A DNA stretch of 64,000 nt from Elusimicrobiota bacterium (GTDB taxonomy: Bacteria > Elusimicrobiota > Elusimicrobia > Elusimicrobiales > UBA9959): assembly GCA_003450815.1 (NCBI GenBank), contig DMES01000002.1, positions 5,591-69,590 of the forward strand, in the 5' to 3' direction. Within the stretch, counting starts at the first letter, position 1. The number at the start of each line of letters is the position of its first letter. The notes under the pieces were generated by a model. It was not told the origin of the DNA. It made no database searches and saw nothing but the letters and a program-made list of their open reading frames with translations. Shown here piece by piece: positions 4,720 to 60,226 of the stretch. A program made the translations under genes and the position numbers.

Positions 4720-6489
4720 ATGGTAGAAGAAAAACCTGAAAATTATGTTGAAAAAATGCGCCATTCGCTGTCGCATGTCATGGCGGAGGCAGTGGTGGAG
4801 CTTTTCCCCGACACGAAACTGGGTATCGGGCCGGCCATAGAGAACGGTTTTTATTACGATTTTGACACCCCTCATCATTTCGTCCCCGATGATTTGCCCG
4901 CCATAGAAAAGAAAATGCGCCATATTATAGCCCAGGCGCAGAAATTTGAGCGGTCAGAAATGCCGAAGGAAGAAGCGCTAAAGTATTTCAGCGGTCGGGG
5001 TGAAAAGTACAAAGTGGAACTGGTCAGCGACCTGACCGACGGCACTATCAGCATTTATAAAAACGGGCCTTTTTCGGACCTGTGCAAGGGACCGCATGTA
5101 GAGCATACCGGCAAGATCAAGGCCTTTAAGCTTATGTCTATCGCCGGCGCTTACTGGCGCGGCAACGAAGCGAACCCGATGCTTCAGCGCATATACGGCG
5201 TGGCCTTTGAAACTCCGACGGAACTTGACGCCTATATTAAAATGCAGGAGGAGGCGGCAAAGCGCGACCATCGTAAGCTTGGCAAGCAGCAGGAGATTTT
5301 TGTCTTTGACGATGATGTCGGCCCCGGGCTTCCTCTTTGGCTGCCCAACGGCGCTGTGATAATAGAGGAGCTTGAGCGGCTGGCCAAGGAAACCGAGGCC
5401 GCCAGCGGCTATCAACGCGTAAAAACGCCGCATATCTGCAAAGAGACTTTGTACCGAAAAAGCGGCCACCTGCCGTATTATGCGGAAAGCATGTTCCCCG
5501 CGATGGATATTGACGGGCAGAAATATTACCTGAAGCCGATGAACTGCCCGCACCACCACAAGATATACGGCGCCAAGCCCCGCAGCTACCGCGACCTGCC
5601 CGTGCGCCTGGCCGAGTACGGCACCTGCTACCGCTACGAACAGTCCGGAGAGCTTTTTGGCTTGATGCGCGTGCGCTCGATGCAGATGAACGACGCTCAC
5701 ATCTATTGCACACCGGAGCAGTTTCAGGAGGAGTTCCTGGCGGTCTGCCGCATGTATCTTGGCTACTTTAAGATCTTCGGCATAGAAAAGTATGTTATGC
5801 GTTTCAGCACGCATTCAGACGAAGGGTTGGGCAAGAAATATGTGGATAACAAAGAGATGTGGCAGTCCACGGAAAAAATGGTCCATGAGGCCTTGGTTAA
5901 CGGAGGGTTGCCGTTCAAGGAAATCCCCAACGAGGCCGCATTTTACGGCCCGAAGATAGATGTCCAGATCTGGAGCGCCATAGGCAAAGAGTTCTCTTTG
6001 GCAACCAACCAGGTGGACTTTGCCGTGCCGGGCCGCTTCGGCCTGGTGTATAAAGACAAGGACGGTACTGAAAAGACTCCGCTGTGCATACATCGCGCGC
6101 CGCTGGGCACACATGAGCGCTTTGTGGGATTTCTTCTGGAGCATTTCGCCGGCCACTTCCCCTTGTGGCTTGCTCCCACGCAGGTGAAAATTTTAACCAT
6201 TACTTCAAACGAAGAGGATTATGTCCGCGGGATTTCAGATAAACTGAAAGCTGAGGGCTTCAGGGTTTCGCTTGACCTTGGCGCCGATACCATCGGCTCC
6301 AAAGTGCGCCTTGCTGCCATAGAAAAACCTGCCTGCACGCTGATAGCCGGCAAGAAGGAGAAGGCGGAAGGCACCATCGCCCTGCGGCTTAAAGGCGGCA
6401 AAAACCTTTACGGCCTTAAGCCGGATGAGGTTATAGCTAATCTCAAAAAAGAAAGGGACAGCCGCGCGCTCGTCAGCGTGTATATTTAG
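4720..6489 (+). CDS. thrS: Threonine--tRNA ligase, short form without the N-terminal TGS domain
   Basis: Editing-domain HSLSHVMAEAV motif, RDHRKLGK, class II catalytic core (NCPHHHKIY, FGLMRVRSMQMNDAHIY) and an anticodon-binding C-terminus. ATG 4720 (MVEEKPEN) is chosen because the track start 4690 lies inside the repeat. Confidence 0.9.
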   Translation: MVEEKPENYVEKMRHSLSHVMAEAVVELFPDTKLGIGPAIENGFYYDFDTPHHFVPDDLPAIEKKMRHIIAQAQKFERSEMPKEEALKYFSGRGEKYKVELVSDLTDGTISIYKNGPFSDLCKGPHVEHTGKIKAFKLMSIAGAYWRGNEANPMLQRIYGVAFETPTELDAYIKMQEEAAKRDHRKLGKQQEIFVFDDDVGPGLPLWLPNGAVIIEELERLAKETEAASGYQRVKTPHICKETLYRKSGHLPYYAESMFPAMDIDGQKYYLKPMNCPHHHKIYGAKPRSYRDLPVRLAEYGTCYRYEQSGELFGLMRVRSMQMNDAHIYCTPEQFQEEFLAVCRMYLGYFKIFGIEKYVMRFSTHSDEGLGKKYVDNKEMWQSTEKMVHEALVNGGLPFKEIPNEAAFYGPKIDVQIWSAIGKEFSLATNQVDFAVPGRFGLVYKDKDGTEKTPLCIHRAPLGTHERFVGFLLEHFAGHFPLWLAPTQVKILTITSNEEDYVRGISDKLKAEGFRVSLDLGADTIGSKVRLAAIEKPACTLIAGKKEKAEGTIALRLKGGKNLYGLKPDEVIANLKKERDSRALVSVYI

Positions 6490-7190: not shown

Positions 7191-8273
7191 ATGACTAAAA
7201 CCATGCTTGTTACAGGCGGTGCGGGGTTTATCGGCTCAAACTTTATTCGTTTTGTTTTTGAAAAAACCGGGTTTAAAGGGCGGATAGTAAATTTTGACAA
7301 ACTTACTTACGCCGGCCTGCGCGGGAATCTAAGCGATATAGAACGCCGCTTCGGCCCCAAACGGTATGTTTTTATAAAGGGAGACATTTGCAACTTTAAA
7401 AAAGTTAATGCGGTGATTAGAAAATACGATGTTTCAGTAATAGTCAATTTCGCGGCAGAGACCCATGTCGACCGCTCTATACACGGCCCGAGAGAGTTTA
7501 TAGAAACCAATATAACCGGCGCCTTTAACCTGCTTGAGTGCGCCCGGGCCAACTGGAAAAACAGGAAAGACGTCCGGTTCCACCACATCAGCACCGACGA
7601 GGTGTTTGGTTCGCTCGGGAAGACCGGCCGCTTCATGGAAACCACGCCTTACGATCCCAGAAGCCCGTATTCGGCCGCGAAAGCTTCATCCGATCACCTT
7701 GCGCGGGCTTATTTCCACACTTACGGCCTGCCGGTCACTATTTCCAACTGCTCTAATAATTACGGGCCTTACCAGCATCCGGAAAAACTCATCCCGCTGG
7801 CGCTTCTTAAAGCTGTTGACGGCGAGCCCATACCGGTTTATGGCGACGGTGGAAATACGCGCGACTGGCTGTTTGTGGAGGACCACTGCCGGGCCATCTG
7901 GGTTATTCTCAGGCGCGGCAGACCCGGAGAAACATATAATGTGGGCGGCAACTGTGAAAAAAGAAATCTTGAAACCTTGAGGGCGTTATTCCGGGCCCTT
8001 GAAAAACTTAAGCCCTCCGTTAAAAATCAGATGCTTAAAGGGTGCCGCTACGAAGAGCTGATAACTTTTGTGAAAGACCGCGCCGGGCATGATCGACGCT
8101 ATGCAATAGATTCCGGGAAAATCAAGAGAGAATTGGGCTGGAAACCTCGCTTCGGCTTTAGCGAAGGTCTTGAAGCGACTGTCGCCTGGTATCTGGCGCA
8201 TGGCAGCCGGCTGAAAAAAACCGTGGCCGCGTCCTATCGTGCCTGGCTGAAAAAGAACTATATTTTGCGCTGA
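7191..8273 (+). CDS. rfbB: dTDP-glucose 4,6-dehydratase
   Basis: GGAGFIGSNF Rossmann motif, STDEVFG, YSAAKASSDHL (YxxxK) and GETYNVGG. Confidence 0.9.
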   Translation: MTKTMLVTGGAGFIGSNFIRFVFEKTGFKGRIVNFDKLTYAGLRGNLSDIERRFGPKRYVFIKGDICNFKKVNAVIRKYDVSVIVNFAAETHVDRSIHGPREFIETNITGAFNLLECARANWKNRKDVRFHHISTDEVFGSLGKTGRFMETTPYDPRSPYSAAKASSDHLARAYFHTYGLPVTISNCSNNYGPYQHPEKLIPLALLKAVDGEPIPVYGDGGNTRDWLFVEDHCRAIWVILRRGRPGETYNVGGNCEKRNLETLRALFRALEKLKPSVKNQMLKGCRYEELITFVKDRAGHDRRYAIDSGKIKRELGWKPRFGFSEGLEATVAWYLAHGSRLKKTVAASYRAWLKKNYILR

Positions 8274-8313: not shown

Positions 8314-9810
8314 ATGACCAATAATATTTTCGGCGTAATACTGGCCGGCGGCGCGGGAACCCGCCTTTGGCCGCTTAGCCGAAAGCTTCTGCCAAAACAA
8401 TTTTTGCGCCTTGGAAAAGAAGACTCCCTTTTTGAGAAAACAGTATCAAGAATAACCCCTTTGACCGGTATAAATAATATAGTAGTGGTAACAAATAAAC
8501 TGCACGCCTTCGGCTCGGGCTACCATCAGCTGAAAAAACTGCGAATGCTGATAGAGCCGGAAGCCAGGAACACAGCTCCCGCCATAGGTCTCGCCTGCCT
8601 GTATCTGCTTAAAATATGCGGCAATGACCCAGTTGCCGTGGTGCTTCCCTCAGACCATATGATAGCCGACCGAAAGGCTTTTCTTAAAGTTTTGTCTGTG
8701 GCGGTCAAAGAAGCAGAAAAGGGGAAAATCGTTACGCTCGGCATAACGCCCGATTCCCCTGAAACCGGTTATGGATACATTAAGAGGGGGAAACCGATAA
8801 CAGTCACAAGTCACAAGTCACAAGTCACAAGTCACAAGCCAGAAGTCACAGGTCACAGGTCACAGGTTGTAAACGGGGATTTCTGCGGAGAGGTTTTTAG
8901 TGTTGATAAATTCGTGGAAAAGCCGGATTTTGAGACGGCCCGTAAATATCTGGAAAACGGCGGTTATTACTGGAACGCGGGGATGTTTGTCTTTAAGGCT
9001 TCGGTTATGCTTGAGGAATTTAAAAAATATCTGCCCGCGGCTTATAACCTGCTTGAAAAAATAAATAAAGAGGCTTTTGAAGGTGAAAAAGTAAATTATG
9101 ACGGCCTTGCCACCTTGTTCTCAAAAATGCCGGCCATTTCCATAGACTACGCGGTAATGGAGAAGTCCGATCGGGTTTGCGTTATCCCTTCAAAATTCGG
9201 CTGGAGCGATGTTGGCAGCTGGCATTATTTCTATAGCGCGCTTCCCAAGGACGGGAACGGTAATGTTAAATTAGGAGACGTCCTGGCCCTTGACGCGCGG
9301 GACAACCTGCTCTATTCCGGCAGCAGGCTTGTAACGGCCATAGGTGTTAAGAACCTGGCCATTATAGAAACCAGCGATGCTATTCTGGTTTCGGAGATCA
9401 ACCACTCGCAGAAAGTTAAAAAGATCGTAGATGAGCTAAAAAAACAGAACAGGCGCGAGCTGGACGAGCATATAACCGTGGAGCGCCCCTGGGGTTCTTA
9501 CACGGTGCTTGACGACTTGCCCAACTACAAAGTTAAAAAACTTAAAATTTATCCGGGTCACAAAATAAGCTATCAATACCACAACCGTCGTTCAGAGCAT
9601 TGGTTTGTTGTCAAGGGTTCGGCTGAGGTTACCTTGGACGGGAAAAAGATGAAAATACGGAAAAACCGTCATGTGGACATACCGCTTAAAGCCAGACATA
9701 TGCTCTTTAATCCGGGCCCGGCGGACCTGGAGATAATAGAGGTCCAGTCGGGCGCTTATTTCGGCGAAGACGATATTATCCGTTTAAACGATTTCTACGG
9801 CAGGAAGTAG
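8314..9810 (+). CDS. manC: Mannose-1-phosphate guanylyltransferase / mannose-6-phosphate isomerase (bifunctional type), carrying a repeat-encoded insertion
   Basis: ILAGGAGTRLWPLSR, ETGYGYI, EKPD...YWNAGMFVF and a C-terminal cupin (WGSYTVL..., HRRSEHWFVV). Confidence 0.85.
   Translation: MTNNIFGVILAGGAGTRLWPLSRKLLPKQFLRLGKEDSLFEKTVSRITPLTGINNIVVVTNKLHAFGSGYHQLKKLRMLIEPEARNTAPAIGLACLYLLKICGNDPVAVVLPSDHMIADRKAFLKVLSVAVKEAEKGKIVTLGITPDSPETGYGYIKRGKPITVTSHKSQVTSHKPEVTGHRSQVVNGDFCGEVFSVDKFVEKPDFETARKYLENGGYYWNAGMFVFKASVMLEEFKKYLPAAYNLLEKINKEAFEGEKVNYDGLATLFSKMPAISIDYAVMEKSDRVCVIPSKFGWSDVGSWHYFYSALPKDGNGNVKLGDVLALDARDNLLYSGSRLVTAIGVKNLAIIETSDAILVSEINHSQKVKKIVDELKKQNRRELDEHITVERPWGSYTVLDDLPNYKVKKLKIYPGHKISYQYHNRRSEHWFVVKGSAEVTLDGKKMKIRKNRHVDIPLKARHMLFNPGPADLEIIEVQSGAYFGEDDIIRLNDFYGRK
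8803..8872 (+). repeat. Heptanucleotide tandem repeat inside manC
   Basis: GTCACAA x5 perfect (8803-8837), then gccagaa, GTCACAG x3 and gttgtaa. It encodes ...VTSHKSQVTSHKPEVTGHRSQVV... Confidence 0.9.
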
Positions 9811-9931
9811 AGAAAGATGCGTCGAGGCAAGGATGTAAAGACGCAAGGAGGGGTGAAAGAAAATATTCTCAAGACTGCTTTGCATTTTAAGTCTAAGTTG
9901 CTTTGCGTCTAAATTGCTATGCATCTAAAGG
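9811..9931. repeat. Two-armed 8-nt-unit repeat element (GCATAGCA/ATTTAGAG family) between manC and gmd
   Basis: The forward arm 9819-9858 reads gcgtcgag gcaaggat gtaaagac gcaaggag. The reverse arm 9875-9930 reads ctgctttg cattttaa gtctaagt tgctttgc gtctaaat tgctatgc atctaaag. Confidence 0.75.
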
Positions 9932-9938
9932 TGAATGT

Positions 9939-11075
9939 ATGAAAAAGGCATTAATAACCGGCATAACCGGACAGGACGGGGCGTATCTGGCGGAACTACT
10001 TCTTAAAAAAGGCTATGAAGTGCATGGTGTCAGACGCCGTTCGTCCTCCTTTAATACGGCCAGGATAGACCATCTTTACAGCGACCCGCACAATAAAGGT
10101 GTGCGCCTTAAACTGTATTATGGAGATCTTACTGATTGTCCGGCTTTGGTTCATATCATGCAGAGAGTACGTCCCGATGAGGTTTATAATCTTGGCGCTC
10201 AGAGCCATGTGGCGGTAAGTTTTGAACAGCCGGAATATACCGGCAATGCCGACGCTCTTGGAACATTGCGCCTGCTGGAAACCATAAGGATACTGGGACT
10301 TGAAAAACATACAAAGTTCTATCAAGCTTCCACTTCTGAGCTGTTTGGGCAGGTACGCGAGACCCCTCAGAGCGAAAAAACGCCTTTTTATCCGCGCTCA
10401 CCTTACGGTGTGGCCAAGCTTTACGCCTACTGGATTACCGTCAATTACCGTGAATCCTATAATATGTTCGCTGCCAACGGTATACTCTTTAACCATGAGT
10501 CGCCACTCAGGGGCGCTACTTTTGTCACTCGCAAAATAACCATGGCGCTGCCGCGGATCCTTCTGGGCCGGCAAAACTGCCTGTATCTAGGCAACCTTGA
10601 TGCCAAGAGGGACTGGGGGCACGCAAGGGATTATGTTGAGGGTATGTGGCGTATGCTTCAGCAGAAGCGGCCTGGTGATTTCGTTCTTGCCACCGGAGAG
10701 CAGCATTCCGTAAGGGAGTTTGTGGATATAGCCGCCCGCAAAATGGGCATGGTTTTGGAATGGAAGGGCAGTGGGCCCGCTGAGCTTGGTATACTTAAAG
10801 CCTTTAAAAAACCATCGGAAGTTGAGTTGTGCCGTGGGGACATAAAAGCCAGGCTTGGAGATGTTTTGGTGCGGGTTGACCCGAAATATTATCGCCCCGC
10901 AGAAGTGGAAACGTTACTCGGAAATCCGGCTAAGGCTAAGAAAATACTTGGGTGGAAGCCAAAAACTTCCTTTGAAGACTTGGTTACTGAAATGGCCATG
11001 TCCGATCTGCGGGGTGCGCTTCGTGAATTGCATTTGGAAAAAGGCGGTTTTAAAGTGAAGAGCCGGGCAGAATAA
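9939..11075 (+). CDS. gmd: GDP-mannose 4,6-dehydratase (long form)
   Basis: [38 protein letters not shown] and [13 protein letters not shown] 9939 (MKKALITG) is used because the track start 9903 lies in the repeat. Confidence 0.9.
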
Positions 11076-12068: not shown

Positions 12069-12851
12069 ATGAAAGTCGTAATTCTGGCGGGCGGTTTGGG
12101 TACCAGGCTTTCGGAAGAAACGGACCTGAAACCCAAACCTATGGTTGAAATAGGCCAGCACCCGATACTTTGGCACATAATGAAACTGTATTCCAGTTAC
12201 GGCTTCAACGATTTTGTGCTTTGTCTTGGCTACAAAGGGTATCTGCTGAAAGAATATTTCGCCAACTACTTCCTGCACCAGGCCGATGTTACCATAGATT
12301 TGAGAAATAATAAGTTGAAAGTGCATCACAGGAAGGCAGAGCCATGGAAAGTGACCCTTGTGGATACCGGCCTTAACACTATGACCGGAGGGCGCATAAA
12401 AAGGATAGCAAAGTACGTAGGCAACGAAACCTTCATGCTAACTTATGGCGATGGTGTGGCCGATGTAAACATGAAAAAGCTGGTGGAATTTCACAAAAAG
12501 CACAAAAGGAAGGCCACTATAACCGCAGTGCAGCCGATCGGCAGGTTTGGCGCCATTGACATAGGCCAGGCGGGAGAGGCCGTGTCTTTCCAGGAAAAAC
12601 CGCTGGGCGACGGCGCCTGGATAAACGGCGGTTTTTTTGTGCTTGAGCCGGAAGTGTTCAAATATATACGCGACGACGCTTCAATCTGGGAGCGTCAGCC
12701 GCTTGAAACCCTGACCAGAGAAAAACAGCTTTCTGTCTACAGGCATAAAGGCTTTTGGAAATGCATGGATACGCTTCGAGATAAGCAGGAGTTGGAAAAT
12801 TTTTGGCGCTCCGGAAATGCCCCATGGAAAGTCTGGAAGGAAGGGCAATGA
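12069..12851 (+). CDS. rfbF: Glucose-1-phosphate cytidylyltransferase
   Basis: MKVVILAGGLGTRLSEETDLKPKPMVEIG..ILWHIMK. GGAGG RBS before ATG 12069. Confidence 0.85.
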   Translation: MKVVILAGGLGTRLSEETDLKPKPMVEIGQHPILWHIMKLYSSYGFNDFVLCLGYKGYLLKEYFANYFLHQADVTIDLRNNKLKVHHRKAEPWKVTLVDTGLNTMTGGRIKRIAKYVGNETFMLTYGDGVADVNMKKLVEFHKKHKRKATITAVQPIGRFGAIDIGQAGEAVSFQEKPLGDGAWINGGFFVLEPEVFKYIRDDASIWERQPLETLTREKQLSVYRHKGFWKCMDTLRDKQELENFWRSGNAPWKVWKEGQ

Positions 12852-13954
12852 AAGACAGGTTTTGGGCCGGGAAAAAGGTGTTCCTTACGGGCAATACAGG
12901 CTTTAAGGGAAGCTGGTTGTCGCTGTGGCTAAATAGTATGGGCGCCAAAGTTTATGGCTATGCCCTGAAGCCGCCTACCAGGCCCAGCCTTTTTGATCTT
13001 TGTTCCATCGGCAAAATAACAAACACAACCATCGCCGATATCCGCGACGCTGGCCGCCTTAAAAAGGCGCTTAAAACGGCCTTGCCCGATATAGTTATCC
13101 ATATGGCGGCTCAGCCGCTGGTACGAGAATCTTACCGTGCGCCGGCGGAAACCTACGATACCAACGTGATGGGGACTGTGAACCTGTTGGAGGCTGTGCG
13201 CGCCTGCGGCAGAGTGAGAGCGGTGGTAAATGTCACCACCGACAAGTGCTATGAGAACAAGGAACGTCCGATTGCCTATCGCGAAGGCGAGCCCCTTGGT
13301 GGTTATGACCCGTATTCCTCCAGCAAGGCCTGCTCCGAGCTGGTCACTTCCGCCTACCGCAACTCATTTTTCAACCCCATGTGCTATTCTCTTAACTCTA
13401 AACTCTTAACTCCCAACTCACAACTTTCGTCTCACCATGTGGCTTTAGCTTCGGCCCGCGCGGGCAATGTGATAGGAGGGGGAGACTGGGCGGACGACAG
13501 GCTTATACCGGATATAATACGGGCTGCTTTGAGCGGCAAAAAAGTCCTGATAAGGAACCCCCGCGCAATAAGGCCATGGCAGCATGTGCTTGAGCCTTTG
13601 AGCGGATACCTGCTTCTGGCGCAGAAACTTTACCGGAAGGGCCCCGCCTATGCCCAGGCCTGGAATTTCGGCCCGGTGGAGTCAGACGCTAAAGATGTGG
13701 AATGGATAGTAAAACGCATGTTCCAAAAGTGGAGTGTCGCTCCCGGCTATGTTTTGGACTCATCCCGCCATCCGCATGAGGCCCATTACCTTAAACTGGA
13801 TTCTTCAAAGGCGCGGCGCGCGCTGCTCTGGCGTCCGCGCTGGAATATCGGCCAGGCGATAGACCGGGTTATTGATTGGACAGAAGCCTATACGCGCAAA
13901 GAAGACATGCGAGGGGTCTGTTTAAGGCAGATAGAAGGATATGAAGAGGCATAG
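12848..13954 (+). CDS. rfbG: CDP-glucose 4,6-dehydratase, carrying a repeat-encoded insertion
   Basis: KKVFLTGNTGFKGSWLSLWL, YDPYSSSKACSELV and RAGNVIGGGDW. ATG 12848 overlaps the rfbF stop (ATGA). Confidence 0.85.
   Translation: MKDRFWAGKKVFLTGNTGFKGSWLSLWLNSMGAKVYGYALKPPTRPSLFDLCSIGKITNTTIADIRDAGRLKKALKTALPDIVIHMAAQPLVRESYRAPAETYDTNVMGTVNLLEAVRACGRVRAVVNVTTDKCYENKERPIAYREGEPLGGYDPYSSSKACSELVTSAYRNSFFNPMCYSLNSKLLTPNSQLSSHHVALASARAGNVIGGGDWADDRLIPDIIRAALSGKKVLIRNPRAIRPWQHVLEPLSGYLLLAQKLYRKGPAYAQAWNFGPVESDAKDVEWIVKRMFQKWSVAPGYVLDSSRHPHEAHYLKLDSSKARRALLWRPRWNIGQAIDRVIDWTEAYTRKEDMRGVCLRQIEGYEEA
13389..13437 (+). repeat. Heptamer-periodic tract inside rfbG
   Basis: ctcttaa ctctaaa ctcttaa ctcccaa ctcacaa ctttcgt ctcacca encodes ...SLNSKLLTPNSQLSSHH... 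Confidence 0.7.
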
Positions 13955-14031
13955 CAGTTTAGATGTAAAGCAATTTAGCGGCAGGGTCATTTAGAGGCAC
14001 AGCAGTTTGGAGGCACGAAGGCGTAGAAGAC
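13944..14031. repeat. 8-nt-unit repeat array (GCATAGCA/ATTTAGAG family) overlapping the rfbG stop
   Basis: From 13949 there are 10 consecutive units: gcatagca gtttagat gtaaagca atttagcg gcagggtc atttagag gcacagca gtttggag gcacgaag gcgtagaa. 13944-13970 is the inverted partner of 14459-14485. Confidence 0.8.
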
Positions 14032-14091
14032 ATATCTTTTAGCGGTTAAATTTCTGGACTACCGAATTGTTAAGTGTTGAGCGGAGGGGGT

Positions 14092-14451
14092 ATGGCTGGA
14101 TTATATAAAGGTCTTAAAGTTTGGGAGAACAGTGTAAACCTCATAAAAAATATATATTCGGTAGCGGAAAAGCTGCCTAAAAGCGAGGAATATAACCTCA
14201 AGCAGCAATTAAAAAGGGCGGTAGTTTCGGTAGCGTTAAACATAGCAGAAGGAAAAGGGCGAAAATCAGCGAAAGAATTTTCCAATTTTCTAAATATATC
14301 GTTCGGATCTTTATGTGAAGTGGAAGCTATATTAACTTTGTGCCAAGAATTGAACTATCTTTCCAATCTGGAAGATACTTTCTCGCGCATAGAAGTGTTA
14401 TTAAAAATGCTCTCTTCTTTAAAAAATAGTTTGGCTGAGAAACAGTCTTAA
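14092..14451 (+). CDS. Four-helix-bundle protein (family formerly called 23S rRNA intervening-sequence protein)
   Basis: LKVWENSVNL...LPKSEEYNLKQQLKRAVVSVALNIAEGKGRKSAKEFSNFLNISFGSLCEVE is the characteristic pattern. GGAGGGGG RBS before ATG 14092. Confidence 0.75.
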   Translation: MAGLYKGLKVWENSVNLIKNIYSVAEKLPKSEEYNLKQQLKRAVVSVALNIAEGKGRKSAKEFSNFLNISFGSLCEVEAILTLCQELNYLSNLEDTFSRIEVLLKMLSSLKNSLAEKQS

Positions 14452-14456
14452 ATGTT

Positions 14457-14495
14457 GTCTTTACATCTAAATTGCTTTGCCTCTTTGCATCTATC
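14457..14495. repeat. Reverse-orientation 8-nt-unit repeat (same family)
   Basis: The sequence is gtctttacatctaaattgctttgcctctttgcatctatc. 14459-14485 is the reverse complement of 13944-13970 with 25/27 identity. Confidence 0.8.
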
Positions 14496-14501
14496 ACTAT
14501 C

Positions 14502-15245
14502 ATGGAAATAATCTTCTTAGGCACCAATGGCTGGTACGACACTTCCACCGGCAATACCGTCTGCGCCCTTGTAAAGACAAAGCGCTTTGATATTGTGTTG
14601 GACGCGGGTAACGGTCTGACCAAACTTGACCGCTATTGCGACGGTTCCAAACCGGTCTATCTTTTCCTCAGCCATTTCCACCTGGACCACATAATAGGTC
14701 TGCACGCCCTGTTGAAATTCAGGTTTCGCAAAGGGCTCACTATATTCGCGCAAAAGGGCGCGCGACGCGTATTGAAAACATTCGTAAACGCCCCTTTTAC
14801 CATGCCTCTGGATAAACTGCCTTATTCCGTAAAAATAGTTGAACTTCCCGACGAAGCCCCAAAGTTGCCTTTTAAGGCTGAAAGTCTGCCGCTTGAGCAT
14901 TCCGACCCGGTGCTTGGCTTGCGTCTGCGACTTGACGGTAAAACCATTGTCTATTGCACCGATACAGGCCATTGTGCAAACGCTCTTAAGCTGGCGAAAA
15001 GGGCGGATCTGCTTATCTCCGAATGCTCCCATCTTTCGGGCGAGGAGAACCCCGGTTGGCCTCATTTTAATCCAGAAACGGCCGCCAGACTGGCGCTTGT
15101 GGCGGGGGTAAAGAATCTCGTGCTTACTCATTTCGCTGCGGACAGATATTCTACCATGCGCCGCAGGACCGCGGCGTTGCGCGTGGCTCGTAGGATATTT
15201 CCCGGCTCCGCCGCCGCAAAAGACGGAATGCGGATGAGACTGTAG
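14502..15245 (+). CDS. MBL-fold metallo-hydrolase (RNase Z / ElaC-like short form)
   Basis: HxHxDH motif (LSHFHLDHIIGL), later D/H ligands (CTDTGH, LTHF) and N-terminal IIFLGTNG. Confidence 0.7.
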   Translation: MEIIFLGTNGWYDTSTGNTVCALVKTKRFDIVLDAGNGLTKLDRYCDGSKPVYLFLSHFHLDHIIGLHALLKFRFRKGLTIFAQKGARRVLKTFVNAPFTMPLDKLPYSVKIVELPDEAPKLPFKAESLPLEHSDPVLGLRLRLDGKTIVYCTDTGHCANALKLAKRADLLISECSHLSGEENPGWPHFNPETAARLALVAGVKNLVLTHFAADRYSTMRRRTAALRVARRIFPGSAAAKDGMRMRL

Positions 15246-15265
15246 GAATCCGTTACTATGCAGGT

Positions 15266-15368
15266 AGACAGAATGCAGAAGTCAGAATACAGAATAGCCG
15301 CTCTCAATAAGCTTCCGATAGCTTTTGCCGCTTTCTGGCTTCTGAATTCTGACTCCTGACTTCCTGAA
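15266..15368. repeat. Two-armed heptamer repeat element
   Basis: The left arm reads cagaatg cagaagt cagaata cagaata. The right arm reads ttctggc ttctgaa ttctgac tcctgac, so the arms are complementary. Confidence 0.75.
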
Positions 15369-15387
15369 TAACCATACAAGGACCCCA

Positions 15388-16758
15388 ATGACCCGTGAAG
15401 AAATTCTAAACGCTGTAAGGGCCTACCATTCGGTTGCTTTTTCCGTTAAGCCTTTCAATAGGGAAAAGGACACTGTTCGCTACGCCGGAAGGGTGTTTGA
15501 CGAAAAAGAACTTGTGGCTCTGGTGGACTCGTCGCTTGATTTTTGGCTGACAGAAGGACGTTACGCCGAGAGTTTCGCCGAAAAGATCTCGGATTTTCTT
15601 GAAGTTGAAAATGTAATCCTGACAAATTCCGGCTCGTCCGCCAACCTGCTCGCGCTTTCGGCTCTGACATCAAAAAAACTAGGCAAAAAAAGACTTGTGC
15701 CCGGCGATGAGGTTATCACTGTCGCCGCGGGATTTCCTGCGACGGTGACTCCGATTCTGCAGAACGGTCTGATTCCGGTTTTTGTGGATGTGGAAATACC
15801 CACCTACAATGTAAATATTGAAGCCCTTAAAAAAGCTGTTTCACCTAAAACCCGCGCTGTCTTTCTAGCTCATACACTCGGCAACCCTTTTAATGTTGAA
15901 GAGGTAATAAAAATCGTTAAAGAACATGACCTGTGGCTTATAGAGGACAACTGCGACGCGCTCGGCAGCAGATATAGATGCGTAGAGGCGCAGCAATTTG
16001 GAGGCATAGGAACGTCCCCTCCGCGCCTCCACGCCTCCACGCCTCCACGCTTCCAGTACACCGGCACATTCGGGCATATCGCCACAATTTCTTTTTATCC
16101 AGCCCACCATATTACCACTGGTGAAGGCGGTGCCGTGGTGACCAATAACGAGCAATTGTCCCAGATCATACGCTCGTTCAGGGATTGGGGACGCGACTGC
16201 TACTGCGCCGGCGGGGAAAACAATACCTGCGGCAAGCGTTTCTCGCAGCAATTCGGTACGCTTCCCCCCGGATACGACCATAAATATGTTTATTCCGAGC
16301 TGGGCTACAACCTGAAAATGACCGATATGCAGGCGGCTATAGGTTCCGCACAAATGGACAAGCTTGAAATGTTCGGCGAGAAAAGACGCGGGAATTTCAA
16401 GCGTTACCAGAAGATGTTTTCCGCATACTCGCGCTTCCTTCTCCTTCCGGAGGCTACTCCTGGCTCGGATCCCTCCTGGTTCACCTATATTGTGTCCGTC
16501 AGGGACAACGCCCCCTTCAGTCGCAATGACCTGGTGACATTCCTGAACGAGCGCCGGATAGAAACAAGAAACATCTTCGCCGGCAATATGATTCGCCAGC
16601 CGGCTTTTATTGGCAGGCCCTGCCGTGTGCATGGGGAACTGAGCGTTACCGACTTCATCATGAACAATACTTTTTTCCTTGGAACTTATCCCGGTATGAC
16701 CGGCGATATGTTCGCCTATGTTGAAGACTGTGTCGCCGAATTTATGGGACGGTTTTAA
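15388..16758 (+). CDS. rfbH: CDP-4-dehydro-6-deoxyglucose 3-dehydrase (E1, PMP/[2Fe-2S] enzyme), carrying a repeat-encoded insertion
   Basis: GDEVITVAAGFPATVTPILQNGLIPVFVDV, FYPAHHITTGEGG (His in place of the aminotransferase Lys), DWGRDCYCAGGENNTCGKRF (Cys cluster) and SDPSWF. Confidence 0.85.
   Translation: MTREEILNAVRAYHSVAFSVKPFNREKDTVRYAGRVFDEKELVALVDSSLDFWLTEGRYAESFAEKISDFLEVENVILTNSGSSANLLALSALTSKKLGKKRLVPGDEVITVAAGFPATVTPILQNGLIPVFVDVEIPTYNVNIEALKKAVSPKTRAVFLAHTLGNPFNVEEVIKIVKEHDLWLIEDNCDALGSRYRCVEAQQFGGIGTSPPRLHASTPPRFQYTGTFGHIATISFYPAHHITTGEGGAVVTNNEQLSQIIRSFRDWGRDCYCAGGENNTCGKRFSQQFGTLPPGYDHKYVYSELGYNLKMTDMQAAIGSAQMDKLEMFGEKRRGNFKRYQKMFSAYSRFLLLPEATPGSDPSWFTYIVSVRDNAPFSRNDLVTFLNERRIETRNIFAGNMIRQPAFIGRPCRVHGELSVTDFIMNNTFFLGTYPGMTGDMFAYVEDCVAEFMGRF
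15971..16056 (+). repeat. 8-nt-unit palindromic repeat inserted in frame in rfbH
   Basis: The first arm gatatagat gcgtagag gcgcagca atttggag gcatagga belongs to the intergenic family. The second arm tccgcgcc tccacgcc tccacgcc tccacgct is largely complementary. It encodes RCVEAQQFGGIGTSPPRLHASTPPRFQ. Confidence 0.8.
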
Positions 16759-16842
16759 AGGCATAGATGCGTAGAGGCATAGCAGTTTAGAGGCATGGAG
16801 GCATAGCAATTTAGATGCGTAGAGGCGTAGCAATTTAGAGGT
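16759..16842. repeat. 8-nt-unit repeat array (10 units) after rfbH
   Basis: From 16761 the units are gcatagat gcgtagag gcatagca gtttagag gcatggag gcatagca atttagat gcgtagag gcgtagca atttagag. Confidence 0.85.
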
Positions 16843-35614: not shown

Positions 35615-35748
35615 TGTAGTCGCAGAGCTTGCTCTGCCCAAAAAATCCAGCGGTAGGGATCTGCCGTGCTATTTGGCGGATACTCTGCCGGACAAGTCTA
35701 TCTATGCGTTCCGAACGCAAATTAGGCAAAGCAAGCTTTGCGACTACA
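35615..35748. repeat. Hairpin/TIR repeat family B, copy 1 (134 bp)
   Basis: The left end tgtagtcgcagagcttgctctgccc and right end ggcaaagcaagctttgcgactaca are inverted repeats. Each end is itself a palindrome. Confidence 0.85.
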
Positions 35749-58775: not shown

Positions 58776-60188
58776 ATGTTTGTTTTCAGATGGCGCAGGC
58801 TGTTTCTTTTTTTGGGCGACGCAGTATTGTTTTATGCGGCTTTGGCGGCCGCTCTTGTTGTGCGCCACTTTGGCCCGATTCCCTTTGATTTTTTTATTCA
58901 GCACATTAAGGTGTTTTCAGTTTTTTTGCCGGTCTGGGCCGGAATTTTTTACGTTATCGGTTTTTATGACATACGCCGTATAAATAAGCTTGTAAATCTT
59001 ATAAATTCCGCCCTTATAGCTTTCGCGGTTAATCTTGCCGCGGCCTCCGCTTTGTTTTACGCTTTTTATCTGCAACTCGGTCTTACGCCCAAAACCCATC
59101 TTTTCCTGACATTAAGCTTCCTGCATGTTTTTGCCGTAATCTGGCGCCGTATCTGGACCAGATTTTTTCTTTCAAAGCTGCTTGTGCAGAGGGTTTCTTT
59201 TTTGGGGACCAATTCCCTGCTTGAGGAAATCTGCAAAGATCTGCAAAAAAATCCGCACCTGGGTTTTGTTGTTACTCCGCTGCCGGACCTGAAGGCTAAA
59301 GACGCGCAAAGCGAAGCTTACTGGCGGCCGGACGGCAGAAGGGGCGGGGAACTTGCGCAAAAAATAGATCTGCTGGTGGTTGACGCTGATGATGCGGAGA
59401 AAAACCCCATGGTTGAAAGCCTGCTGCTGTCGACCGCCGTAATGGAAGAGATTCCTATAATCACCCATCTGGATTTTTATGAGGATCTTTACGGCAAGAT
59501 ACCCCCTGAGTATGCCGCCAAACCCAACTGGCTTTTAAGCAATGTGCTGCATAAAAATAACGCGCTGTACGCAGTAATCAAGCGCGGAATGGATATTGTC
59601 GCCGCTTCTTTCGTGTTGCTGCTTACTCTGCCTCTTCTGGCGGCGGTTTACTGCGCGCTGAAAATTTCCGGCATGGGCGGGATCCCGGTTTTCTTTTTTC
59701 AAAAGCGCGTGGGTTACCTGGGCAGGCGGTTCATTATATGGAAATTTAGGACCATGGTGCAGGGGGCCGACAAGGCCGGACCTCTTTACCGGGCATCCGC
59801 CGGCGACGACCGCGTAACACGTCTGGGCCGTTTTTTGCGCCGGACACGCCTGGATGAATTGCCGCAGTTGTGGAATGTCCTTAAAGGGGAGATGTCGGTT
59901 GTTGGGCCGCGGCCTGAATGGATACGCGAGGTGCGGATACTTGAACGCAGTGTGCCGCATTATCATCTGCGACACCTGGTTAAGCCTGGTGTCACCGGTT
60001 GGGCGCAAATACATCTGCAGGCAACCTCAAGCGAATTGGAATCCCTTGAAAAACTGCATTATGACCTCTACTATGTCAAGAACCTTTCGCTGGCGCTGGA
60101 TATAGGTATCATACTGCGCACCTTCCGCAGGGTTTTTCAGAAAGATGCTTCCTTTGCGGCAAGAGAAAAGCTGAAGGCTGAAGGCTGA
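58776..60188 (+). CDS. Polyprenyl-phosphate phosphoglycosyl transferase (WbaP-type initiating enzyme)
   Basis: N-terminal TM bundle and the C-terminal bacterial sugar transferase domain (KRGMDIVAA..., [50 protein letters not shown]). Confidence 0.85.
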
Positions 60189-60226
60189 AGGCTGAAGGCT
60201 GAAGGCTGAAGGCTGAAGGCTGAAGG
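60171..60226 (+). repeat. Perfect heptanucleotide tandem repeat (CTGAAGG)x8 spanning the stop codon
   Basis: 56 nt with no mismatch. The last residues ...LKAEG and the TGA stop (60186-60188) are encoded by the repeat. Confidence 0.95.

Follow-up and report, generated by a model that had tools for sequence, protein, structure and literature searches.

A small gene for a four-helix-bundle (4HB) protein sits within the CDP-dideoxyhexose operon of the 64,000-nucleotide (nt) stretch of Elusimicrobiota DNA analyzed here (the window), enclosed by two inverted arrays of short repeat units. The source bacterium is uncultured; a contig of JGI metagenome 3300009296 matches the window identically, and NCBI assigns the 4HB protein to an Elusimicrobia metagenome-assembled genome. 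Gene and arrays together span about 570 bp (~13928 to ~14500), and we conclude that they make up an element of the intervening-sequence (IVS) type, otherwise known from 23S ribosomal RNA (rRNA), at a site outside rRNA. The element is one instance of an architecture shared across the gene family, namely a 4HB gene flanked by inverted short-unit arrays, of which we found no description in the searchable literature. As to how it is built and accommodated, we hold it on balance probable that it is a resident gene cassette constructed like an IVS, with arms that would fold into a stem-loop in the transcript and be open to RNase III.

The arms emerged from a repeat search of the window. The 27-mer aagaggcatagcagtttagatgtaaag at 13944-13970 has a near-perfect reverse complement at 14459-14485, the two being 93% complementary (25/27) and 488 nt apart. 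In our flank test, in which the 200 nt upstream of a gene are aligned to the reverse complement of the 150 nt downstream and the result is compared with shuffles, the cassette reaches 22.0, where shuffles average 7.9 (z = 13.5; 0/100 shuffles equal it). An initial reading made from the letters alone (the sequence-only reading) had described a 27-nt inverted repeat with a 25/27 match, overlapping the last codons of rfbG, enclosing only a 4HB gene and belonging to a family of 8-nt units, and all of this was borne out. The rfbG open reading frame (ORF) ends at 13954, and the left arm spans its stop codon together with the three sense codons before it; the single real gene between the arms lies at 14092-14451; and the 16-mer GAGGCATAGCAGTTTA occurs 7 times in the window when up to 3 mismatches are allowed, versus 0.52 expected. 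Pairing is longer than the 27-mer, as an RNA fold pairs ~45 positions between ~13928 and ~14500 at −159 kcal/mol (z = −3.3 versus shuffles), with the long-range stem present in both the minimum-free-energy (MFE) and the centroid structure.

Read from left to right, the element begins with the left arm (13928-14017, + orientation), a run of ~11 units of 8 nt that contains the 27-mer and in which TRF detects a period of 16 at 13945-14016. Its first half reads GATAGAAG GATATGAA GAGGCATA GCAGTTTA GATGTAAA GCAATTTA and its second half GCGGCAGG GTCATTTA GAGGCACA GCAGTTTG GAGGCACG, and the unit family of the arms can be summarized as GAGGCRNA / GCARTTTA / GATGYRNA (TRF period 16). This arm, paired in both predicted structures, is the source of the final codons and the TAG stop of rfbG, the C-terminus of which it has remodelled. 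The inner spacer that follows (14018-14091, +) holds a − orientation array, degenerate in the window and clear in the orthologues L004 (7939-7986) and L015 (302-333), as well as a strong Shine-Dalgarno sequence (GGAGGGGG) 5 nt ahead of the 4HB ATG. Next come the 4HB gene itself (14092-14451, +; 119 aa, PF05635, TIGR02436) and the right arm (14455-14491, −), which contains 14459-14485 and consists of 4 units of 8 nt, read on the − strand as GATGCAAA GAGGCAAA GCAATTTA GATGTAAA. The right arm stops 11 nt short of the start codon in the downstream host gene, an MBL-fold metallo-hydrolase (MBL; 14502-15245, +; Lactamase_B_2, with weak RNase Z similarity). The upstream host gene, rfbG (12848-13954, +; TIGR02622, 493 bits), encodes a CDP-glucose 4,6-dehydratase. 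The sequence-only reading had placed the 4HB gene between rfbG and rfbH, which is right as to position, but it missed the MBL gene; the junction concerned is rfbG/MBL, and in relatives without the cassette MBL directly adjoins rfbG. Consensus scans for a promoter or terminator of the cassette's own remained at shuffle level.

A survey of the gene family extends these observations beyond one locus. Metagenomes searched with an alignment built from 42 homologues yielded 80 loci (54-94% identity) with 66 non-redundant 4HB genes, and a flanking inverted repeat was called at a flank-test score of at least 14. Inverted flanks were found for 45/66 (68%) of these genes, with z from 5 to 25, whereas flanks in direct orientation reached 14 in 17% only. 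Control ORFs reached it in 14/1076 cases (1.3%; Fisher p about 7e-52), most of which were redundant 4HB copies, ORFs antisense over a 4HB gene, or immediate neighbours of one, and among control ORFs in unrelated rfb loci the count was 0/921. Whether other 4HB genes share such flanks was one of two checks proposed along with the sequence-only reading, and the answer is affirmative: the succession of array, 4HB gene, and inverted array is the rule for the 4HB family across many lineages. As for rRNA, 0/80 loci lie in it, a scan for conserved 23S/16S motifs was negative in all related loci, and Rfam returned nothing at the window arrays or in 20 related loci.

Units of 8 nt make up the arms of these cassettes in nearly all cases, and upstream the coding strand of the array is rich in purines (e.g., TTAGAGGA, TTGGAAGG, GAAGCTGA, GCAGCTAA, and GATGTATA, besides others). 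At lag 8, the two flanks show an autocorrelation of 0.41 and the gene itself one of 0.29, and tandem arrays cover 25.7% of the flanks versus 2.7% of what remains of these contigs. With a median arm of 31 nt and a median element span of 487 nt, the arms leave ~21 nt free ahead of the start codon and set in again ~20 nt past the stop codon. On the upstream side the arrays lie against the neighbouring ORF and in some cases terminate it: the median start of the left arm is 3.5 nt past the upstream stop, and 17/40 left arms overlap the upstream ORF. Neighbouring genes are co-oriented with the 4HB gene in 51/55 instances upstream and 53/55 downstream. The unit sequence turns over between cassettes, and within each cassette the two arms stay complementary; the own partner arm ranks best of 66 candidates in 17 cases (~1 expected), and a single contig (L138) carries two cassettes with unrelated unit families. 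Arrays change length by whole units in the manner of minisatellites, as seen in L110 and L111, where the genes are identical and a 24-nt indel amounts to exactly three units.

The second proposed check, a comparison of orthologous rfbG-rfbH junctions, reveals the history of the insertion. The closest homologues of the 4HB protein (94%, 88%, and 86% identical) are found in L004 (Elusimicrobia bacterium GWF2_52_66), L014, and L015, at the same place in the order rfbG-4HB-MBL(-rfbH). Together with the window, four lineages thus carry the gene at the exact rfbG/MBL site, all with arrays on both sides (+ upstream and − downstream in L004, L014, and L015). Empty sites were sought by an rfbG scan of species-representative genomes and, for closer relatives, via MBL homologues. 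In L192, L194, L196, and L198, whose MBL proteins are 73-83% identical to that of the window, rfbG is followed by MBL without a 4HB gene, and in the more distant Elusimicrobia L016 and L019, rfbG and rfbH lie ~26 nt apart, without a 4HB gene or arrays. The rfbG/MBL spacer measures 35 nt with four + units only in L194 (MBL 83% identical), 173 nt with a gene-less hairpin of inverted 7-nt arrays in L192 (82%), and 9 nt and 46 nt, without arrays, in L196 (74%) and L198 (73%), respectively. In this clade, rfbG-MBL-rfbH is the ancestral order. Relative to close as well as distant relatives, the 4HB cassette is an insertion at the rfbG/MBL junction in one Elusimicrobia subclade. The proposal that the repeats bracket a 4HB gene inserted in a CDP-dideoxyhexose operon is in this way supported by the junction comparison and the family survey alike.

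The insertion is old rather than recent, given a synonymous divergence (dS) of 0.4-1.1 among carriers. The ratio of nonsynonymous to synonymous divergence (dN/dS) of the 4HB gene versus its orthologues is 0.06-0.11, and the right arms of the window and L004 are identical at 31/32 positions while dS is 0.43. From the same-site orthologues, the low dN/dS, and the conserved right arm it follows that the cassette is old, vertically inherited in the subclade, and functional, with its protein under purifying selection. The unit family at one site differs between relatives, and where two arms exist, they still match: the rfbG/MBL junction has the 8-nt family in the window and the 7-nt unit GCCATAN in L192 (TTGCCATAAGCCATATGCCGTATGCCATAGGC ... 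GCCTATGGCCTAAGGCATATGGCTTATAGCAA), with matching arms in each. The L192 hairpin has a loop of 95 nt and a fold energy of −67 kcal/mol, and the 5′ part of its loop resembles the start of the 4HB ORF (ATGTCTG-ATTA..GTTTGGGA.A.C.G.GTAAA.CTC; local score 16, with 15 the highest among 200 shuffles). When the loop was aligned globally, with gaps, to the 4HB 5′ end, the match was insignificant. Judging from the local similarity, the hairpin may be a decayed cassette. At another junction of the same operon type, rfbF/rfbG, 4HB genes occur in L018 (Elusimicrobia), L020 (Deltaproteobacteria), L052 (Gallionella), and L102.

Not every array of the arm family has a 4HB gene beside it. Within the window these arrays are confined to this region, where they are found in the cassette arms and at four other places in the operon. 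A gene-less hairpin upstream of gmd (9816-9929) combines a + array (9816-9850) with a − array (9866-9929) and has an orthologue in L004 (3610-3693). A second one (15975-16060; + array 15977-16008, − array 16018-16055) lies in frame inside rfbH (15388-16758), adding 24 aa in the window and 40 aa at the same site in L004 with the reading frame kept; L016, L019, L085, and L192 have no such insert. In addition, a solo + array of 9-10 units fills the spacer between rfbH and a reductase gene (16759-16841), a junction with 2 units in the relative L192 versus 9 in the window. A strict-threshold scan for local hairpins misses the weaker gene-less ones. Because arrays of the arm family are also gene-less and in frame inside rfbH, these repeats are not exclusively cassette ends. 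That they delimit an inserted cassette is shown in the comparative sense alone.

With same-family arrays at five sites in 7 kb and arrays of other families at several more, one may ask whether the genome simply scatters short-unit arrays at junctions, so that the 4HB gene just happens to lie between a + and a − copy. The left array does pair equally well with a distant array. Coincidence is nonetheless extremely improbable and already largely refuted: 68% of 66 independent 4HB genes have the arrangement of + upstream and − downstream, with unrelated units and in other phyla, against at most 1.3% of controls, and the density of arrays in 4HB flanks is about tenfold that found elsewhere on the same contigs.

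The layout is also present in cultured cyanobacteria. A tblastn search against plasmids uncovered 4HB genes in Nostocales and other cyanobacteria, and of 15 cyanobacterial loci inspected, 9/15 have inverted heptamer arrays, another 3 are partial, and the remaining 3 negative; insertion sequences disrupt two of the negatives. The unit is GGGTGTA in Nostoc punctiforme and Calothrix brevissima (downstream of an integrase gene), GGTGACA in Anabaena sp. 90 (between cas6 and cas4), GGGAACA on a plasmid of Nostoc sp. C052, and GGGAAAA on plasmids of Nostoc sp. ATCC 53789 and Geminocystis. In Nostoc edaphicum (GGGAGTA), the 4HB gene lies between two ribonucleotide-reductase genes and is antisense to both, and because of this case we can say that array polarity tracks the 4HB gene and not the host operon. 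A plasmid locus of Gemmatirosa has (CTCCTGCC)n arrays downstream without an inverted partner. The plasmid heptamers resemble the short tandemly repeated repetitive (STRR) elements of heterocystous cyanobacteria. Nostoc punctiforme PCC 73102 is genetically tractable, and since the layout is found in this culturable strain (NPUN_RS34290 on pNPUN01) and in Anabaena sp. 90 (ANA_RS23230 on pANA02), the question can be tested at the bench. The cassettes of L179 (Anabaena sp. 90 pANA02) and L183 (Pseudanabaena galeata) both lie between cas6 and cas4 in type I-D CRISPR-cas loci. 4HB genes have been noted near CRISPR adaptation modules before, where a ‘23S rRNA IVP’ is statistically associated with such modules (PMC10910872), and the cas6/cas4 cassettes may account for that association.

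An alternative that we regard as possible, if unlikely, is that the cassette is mobile at the DNA level. Its inverted arrays would then serve as terminal repeats or single-strand hairpins for an enzyme encoded elsewhere (e.g., a REP-associated tyrosine transposase, an IS200/IS605-type enzyme, or an integrase that works on folded sites); cargo or an accessory factor is what the 4HB gene would be, and the gene-less hairpins would be derivatives akin to miniature inverted-repeat transposable elements (MITEs). Presence and absence of the gene at one junction among close relatives, 4HB genes at different junctions of one operon type, and gene-less hairpins of the same family, including the in-frame rfbH inserts that resemble Rickettsia palindromic elements, all fit this idea. 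So do the array polarity that follows the 4HB gene even when it is antisense (Nostoc edaphicum) and the strand-neutral complementarity of the arms. On the other hand, the gene table shows neither a transposase nor an integrase nor a reverse transcriptase up to 10 kb from the cassette, no target-site duplication is recognizable against the empty junctions of L194, L196, and L198, and the 64-kb window contains one 4HB gene and no second copy of the cassette. Near-identical 4HB copies at unrelated sites are likewise lacking, the closest homologues being same-site orthologues; the arms are variable arrays rather than defined termini, and residence has been long and vertical.

The resident stem-loop cassette that we favour would work as follows, by analogy with the IVSs. 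In it, a promoter-less 4HB ORF equipped with a Shine-Dalgarno sequence stands between a purine-rich array upstream and a complementary array downstream. The cassette lies co-directionally at the rfbG/MBL junction, where transcription of the host operon would carry the 4HB gene along as a passenger. Translation of the upstream gene would be stopped in all frames by the upstream array: a TAG recurs every 16 nt, all three frames are therefore covered, and rfbG now ends inside the array. In the transcript, the arms would pair into a stem of ~27-45 bp that loops out the 4HB ORF and sets the rfbG stop beside the MBL start. If the analogy holds, this double-stranded stem would be a likely substrate of RNase III. 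Looping out would let the operon tolerate the insertion, which would also explain why complementarity has been retained.

Several observations weigh against this interpretation. Duplex energies are alike for the two strands (sense −66.6 vs antisense −67.9 kcal/mol; p = 0.30), and the most frequent mismatch between the arms (an A upstream where the complement of the downstream arm has a G) clashes in sense RNA; the mismatch spectrum is dominated by transitions and does not favour sense RNA. The structure could equally act in DNA or in antisense RNA. Moreover, the left array pairs nearly equally well with the − array at 9866-9932, 4 kb away (21.5 vs 22.0), and arrays also stand alone (16759-16841) and within genes, so the complementarity of the two cassette arms follows in part from their belonging to one family. 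Covariation of the arms across the four orthologues was tried and rejected as support, own-arm scores being barely above cross-lineage scores. Arm identity averages 83% only, and ~30% of 4HB genes have no detectable inverted flanks. Finally, a stem requires no 8-nt periodicity, and this periodicity is unexplained by the stem model.

The periodicity is a natural starting point for another explanation, in which an oligomeric 4HB protein binds the 7-8-nt units flanking its own gene, in RNA or in DNA, for autoregulation or some cellular function, and in which the arms match since both fit the same protein. The protein is a clear family member, with 110.2 bits to PF05635 (cut-off 33.8) and 108.2 bits to TIGR02436 (cut-off 24), and its nearest solved structure is 2GSC (E = 3.8e-18), an entry with five chains. 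Besides the strict periodicity that is superfluous for a stem, protein binding would suit a unit family that is cassette-specific and changes with the protein lineage, as well as a right arm (31/32 between the window and L004) conserved far above the synonymous level. A distant relative, Avd of diversity-generating retroelements, is a nucleic-acid-binding cofactor, and its model NF033474 matches the 4HB protein weakly (E = 1.4e-4; 22 bits at a family cut-off of 80 bits). We nevertheless judge this explanation improbable, as arrays of the same family occur without a nearby gene (9816-9929 and 16759-16841, with further gene-less arrays in L192), and binding needs no inversion, yet 68% of flanks are inverted versus 17% direct.

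Two further readings were dismissed: PADLOC gave no match for the 4HB or the MBL protein that would indicate a defence system, and a scan of viral contigs with the 4HB alignment found no relatives that would point to phage. Base composition has to be read with care as well. The GC content of the 4HB gene is 0.36 (0.35-0.41) compared with about 0.50 (0.50-0.55) in its surroundings, and across the family gene GC lies below flank GC in 60/61 loci, by ~10 points, while tracking host GC (r = 0.84). As low GC is a family-wide trait, we rejected it as proof of recent transfer.

Turning to known systems, the favoured stem-loop cassette has its closest counterpart in the 23S rRNA IVSs with an S23p ORF of Leptospira and Coxiella burnetii. 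The Coxiella IVS measures 428-444 nt, has a 28-bp terminal stem and an S23p 4HB ORF, is cut by RNase III, and has a GC content of 36% in a genome of 42.5% (PMC4990558). Both kinds of element encode a PF05635 ORF in a loop closed by complementary termini (a stem of ~28 bp in the IVSs and of ~27-45 bp in the window) and are of similar size (~0.43-0.75 kb and ~0.5 kb, respectively). A GC content below that of the host, gene-less stem-loop versions, and a sporadic distribution are shared, too. However, the IVSs occupy helix 9, 25, or 45 of 23S rRNA, whereas the window cassette lies in a protein-coding operon without an rRNA match in Rfam; and the arms here are arrays of 7-8-nt units. As passengers in rRNA insertions, 4HB genes have also been noted in bacteria of the candidate phyla radiation (CPR; PMC11270868).

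The arrays themselves recall the cyanobacterial STRR sequences in being tandem 7-nt units at gene junctions that functional genes can harbour without being destroyed, and those that flank 4HB genes in plasmids of Nostoc, Anabaena, and Calothrix are heptamers of the STRR type. STRR heptamers were reportedly described in cyanobacteria by Mazel et al. in 1990, and a 1997 paper by Vioque, listed among the references of PMC7593598, deals with STRR within the gene for RNase P RNA. The window arms differ in having 8-nt units, a 16-nt super-period, and an Elusimicrobia host, and do not qualify as STRR. MITEs and Rickettsia palindromic elements are similarly short, non-coding palindromic insertions, some of them in frame in essential genes (compare rfbH 15975-16060 and the rfbG of L102), but the arrays here have no defined termini or target duplications, their body is variable, and copies are not conserved. 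Compared with transposons and MITEs in general, inverted arms are present but as variable arrays, no transposase or integrase was seen within 10 kb, and the 64-kb window has a single 4HB gene.

Integron cassettes are likewise promoter-less single genes with imperfect, foldable inverted repeats and co-oriented with read-through transcription. Their attC is one-sided with conserved core sites and needs an integrase and attI, none of which is found near the 4HB cassette; the window arrays, by contrast, are two-sided, their neighbours are sugar-pathway genes, and 4HB cassettes stand singly inside ordinary operons. Diversity-generating retroelements share the distantly related four-helix-bundle fold of Avd (22 bits vs the cut-off of 80), but no reverse transcriptase and no pair of template and variable repeats occurs near the cassette.

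Such likenesses invite a broader speculation, which we rate as highly improbable: 4HB cassettes, gene-less array hairpins, rRNA IVSs, and STRR arrays might form one widespread, hitherto unrecognized class of selfish stem-loop elements in transcription units, spreading via RNA with an Avd-like 4HB protein as cofactor of a host reverse transcriptase, while G-rich units would arise, telomere-like, as a short template is copied over and over. Either flank has its G-rich strand running 5′ to 3′ towards the cassette, a polarity that can be likened to that of healed chromosome ends.

The resident stem-loop cassette matters for wider reasons, since three old puzzles may be one: the nature of the 23S rRNA IVSs, the role of the common S23p 4HB proteins, and the 7-8-nt arrays at gene junctions. 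If 4HB genes in general move or persist as stem-loop cassettes in operons, their scattered sites in O-antigen, CRISPR-cas, restriction, and ribonucleotide-reductase operons would be explained, and genome annotation could flag them as insertions. Arrays that extend ORFs or lie in frame within enzymes would then be invasions and not native sequence.

Short-unit arrays of other families are scattered through the window and its relatives. In rfbG, an in-frame insert of ~11 aa at 13389-13419 consists of a short tandem array (CTCTTAACTCCAAA x2.2), common to L004 and absent from L016, L192, L194, and L196; the same loop holds (AATCCTCC)10 in L102. Heptamer arrays occur at three places in the window. 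The mannose-1-phosphate guanylyltransferase gene manC (8314-9810) contains (AGTCACA)9, 63 nt long and in frame, at 8802-8864, where L004 and L192 have four GCCATAN units, i.e., the unit family of the L192 rfbG/MBL hairpin. The MBL/rfbH spacer (15257-15370) forms a hairpin of 7-nt units, (CAGAATN)4 ... (TTCTGAN)5, of the same design as the 8-nt arrays, and a perfect (GCTGAAG)8.1 at 60170-60226 overlaps the 3′ end of ORF 58776-60188, the stop codon of which falls within the array. In the sister lineage L004, nearly every operon spacer is colonised by arrays, and hairpins of further unit families (GTAGGCTG-type) are found at other operon junctions (4849-4943 and 10698-10875). The units GCGGCAGG (window 13978-13990) and GCGGTACA (L004 ~7912-7925) recall the 8-nt ops element GGCGGTAG of polysaccharide operons, a likeness that we take to be probably coincidental. 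Unrelated to the unit arrays is a small palindromic repeat, GCAAAGCTTGCTTTGC, which resembles repetitive extragenic palindromic (REP) sequences and lies at 35622, 35726, 41881, 60322, and 61805 of the window (12 strand matches with up to 2 mismatches versus 0.5 expected).

The MBL protein (14502-15245) is RNase Z-like with a weak match to Apyc1, and its homologues are widespread in CDP-sugar clusters of Elusimicrobia. Its gene shifts place among them: after rfbG (L192-L198), upstream of rfbF (L016/L017), or after rfbH (L030). In other phyla, small stray genes turn up in rfbG/rfbH or rfbF/rfbG junctions; rfbG/rfbH gaps containing them were seen in L032, L044, L049, L057, L074, L087, L092, L093, L095, and L020, with further coordinates at L094 6179-6562, L093 2425-2667, and L045 6073-6711. 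Judged by eye from their translations, they include MazF/PemK-like toxin-antitoxin pairs, GIY-YIG and GxxExxY-like proteins, and adenylylsulfate kinase, and the two junctions look generally receptive to small insertions.

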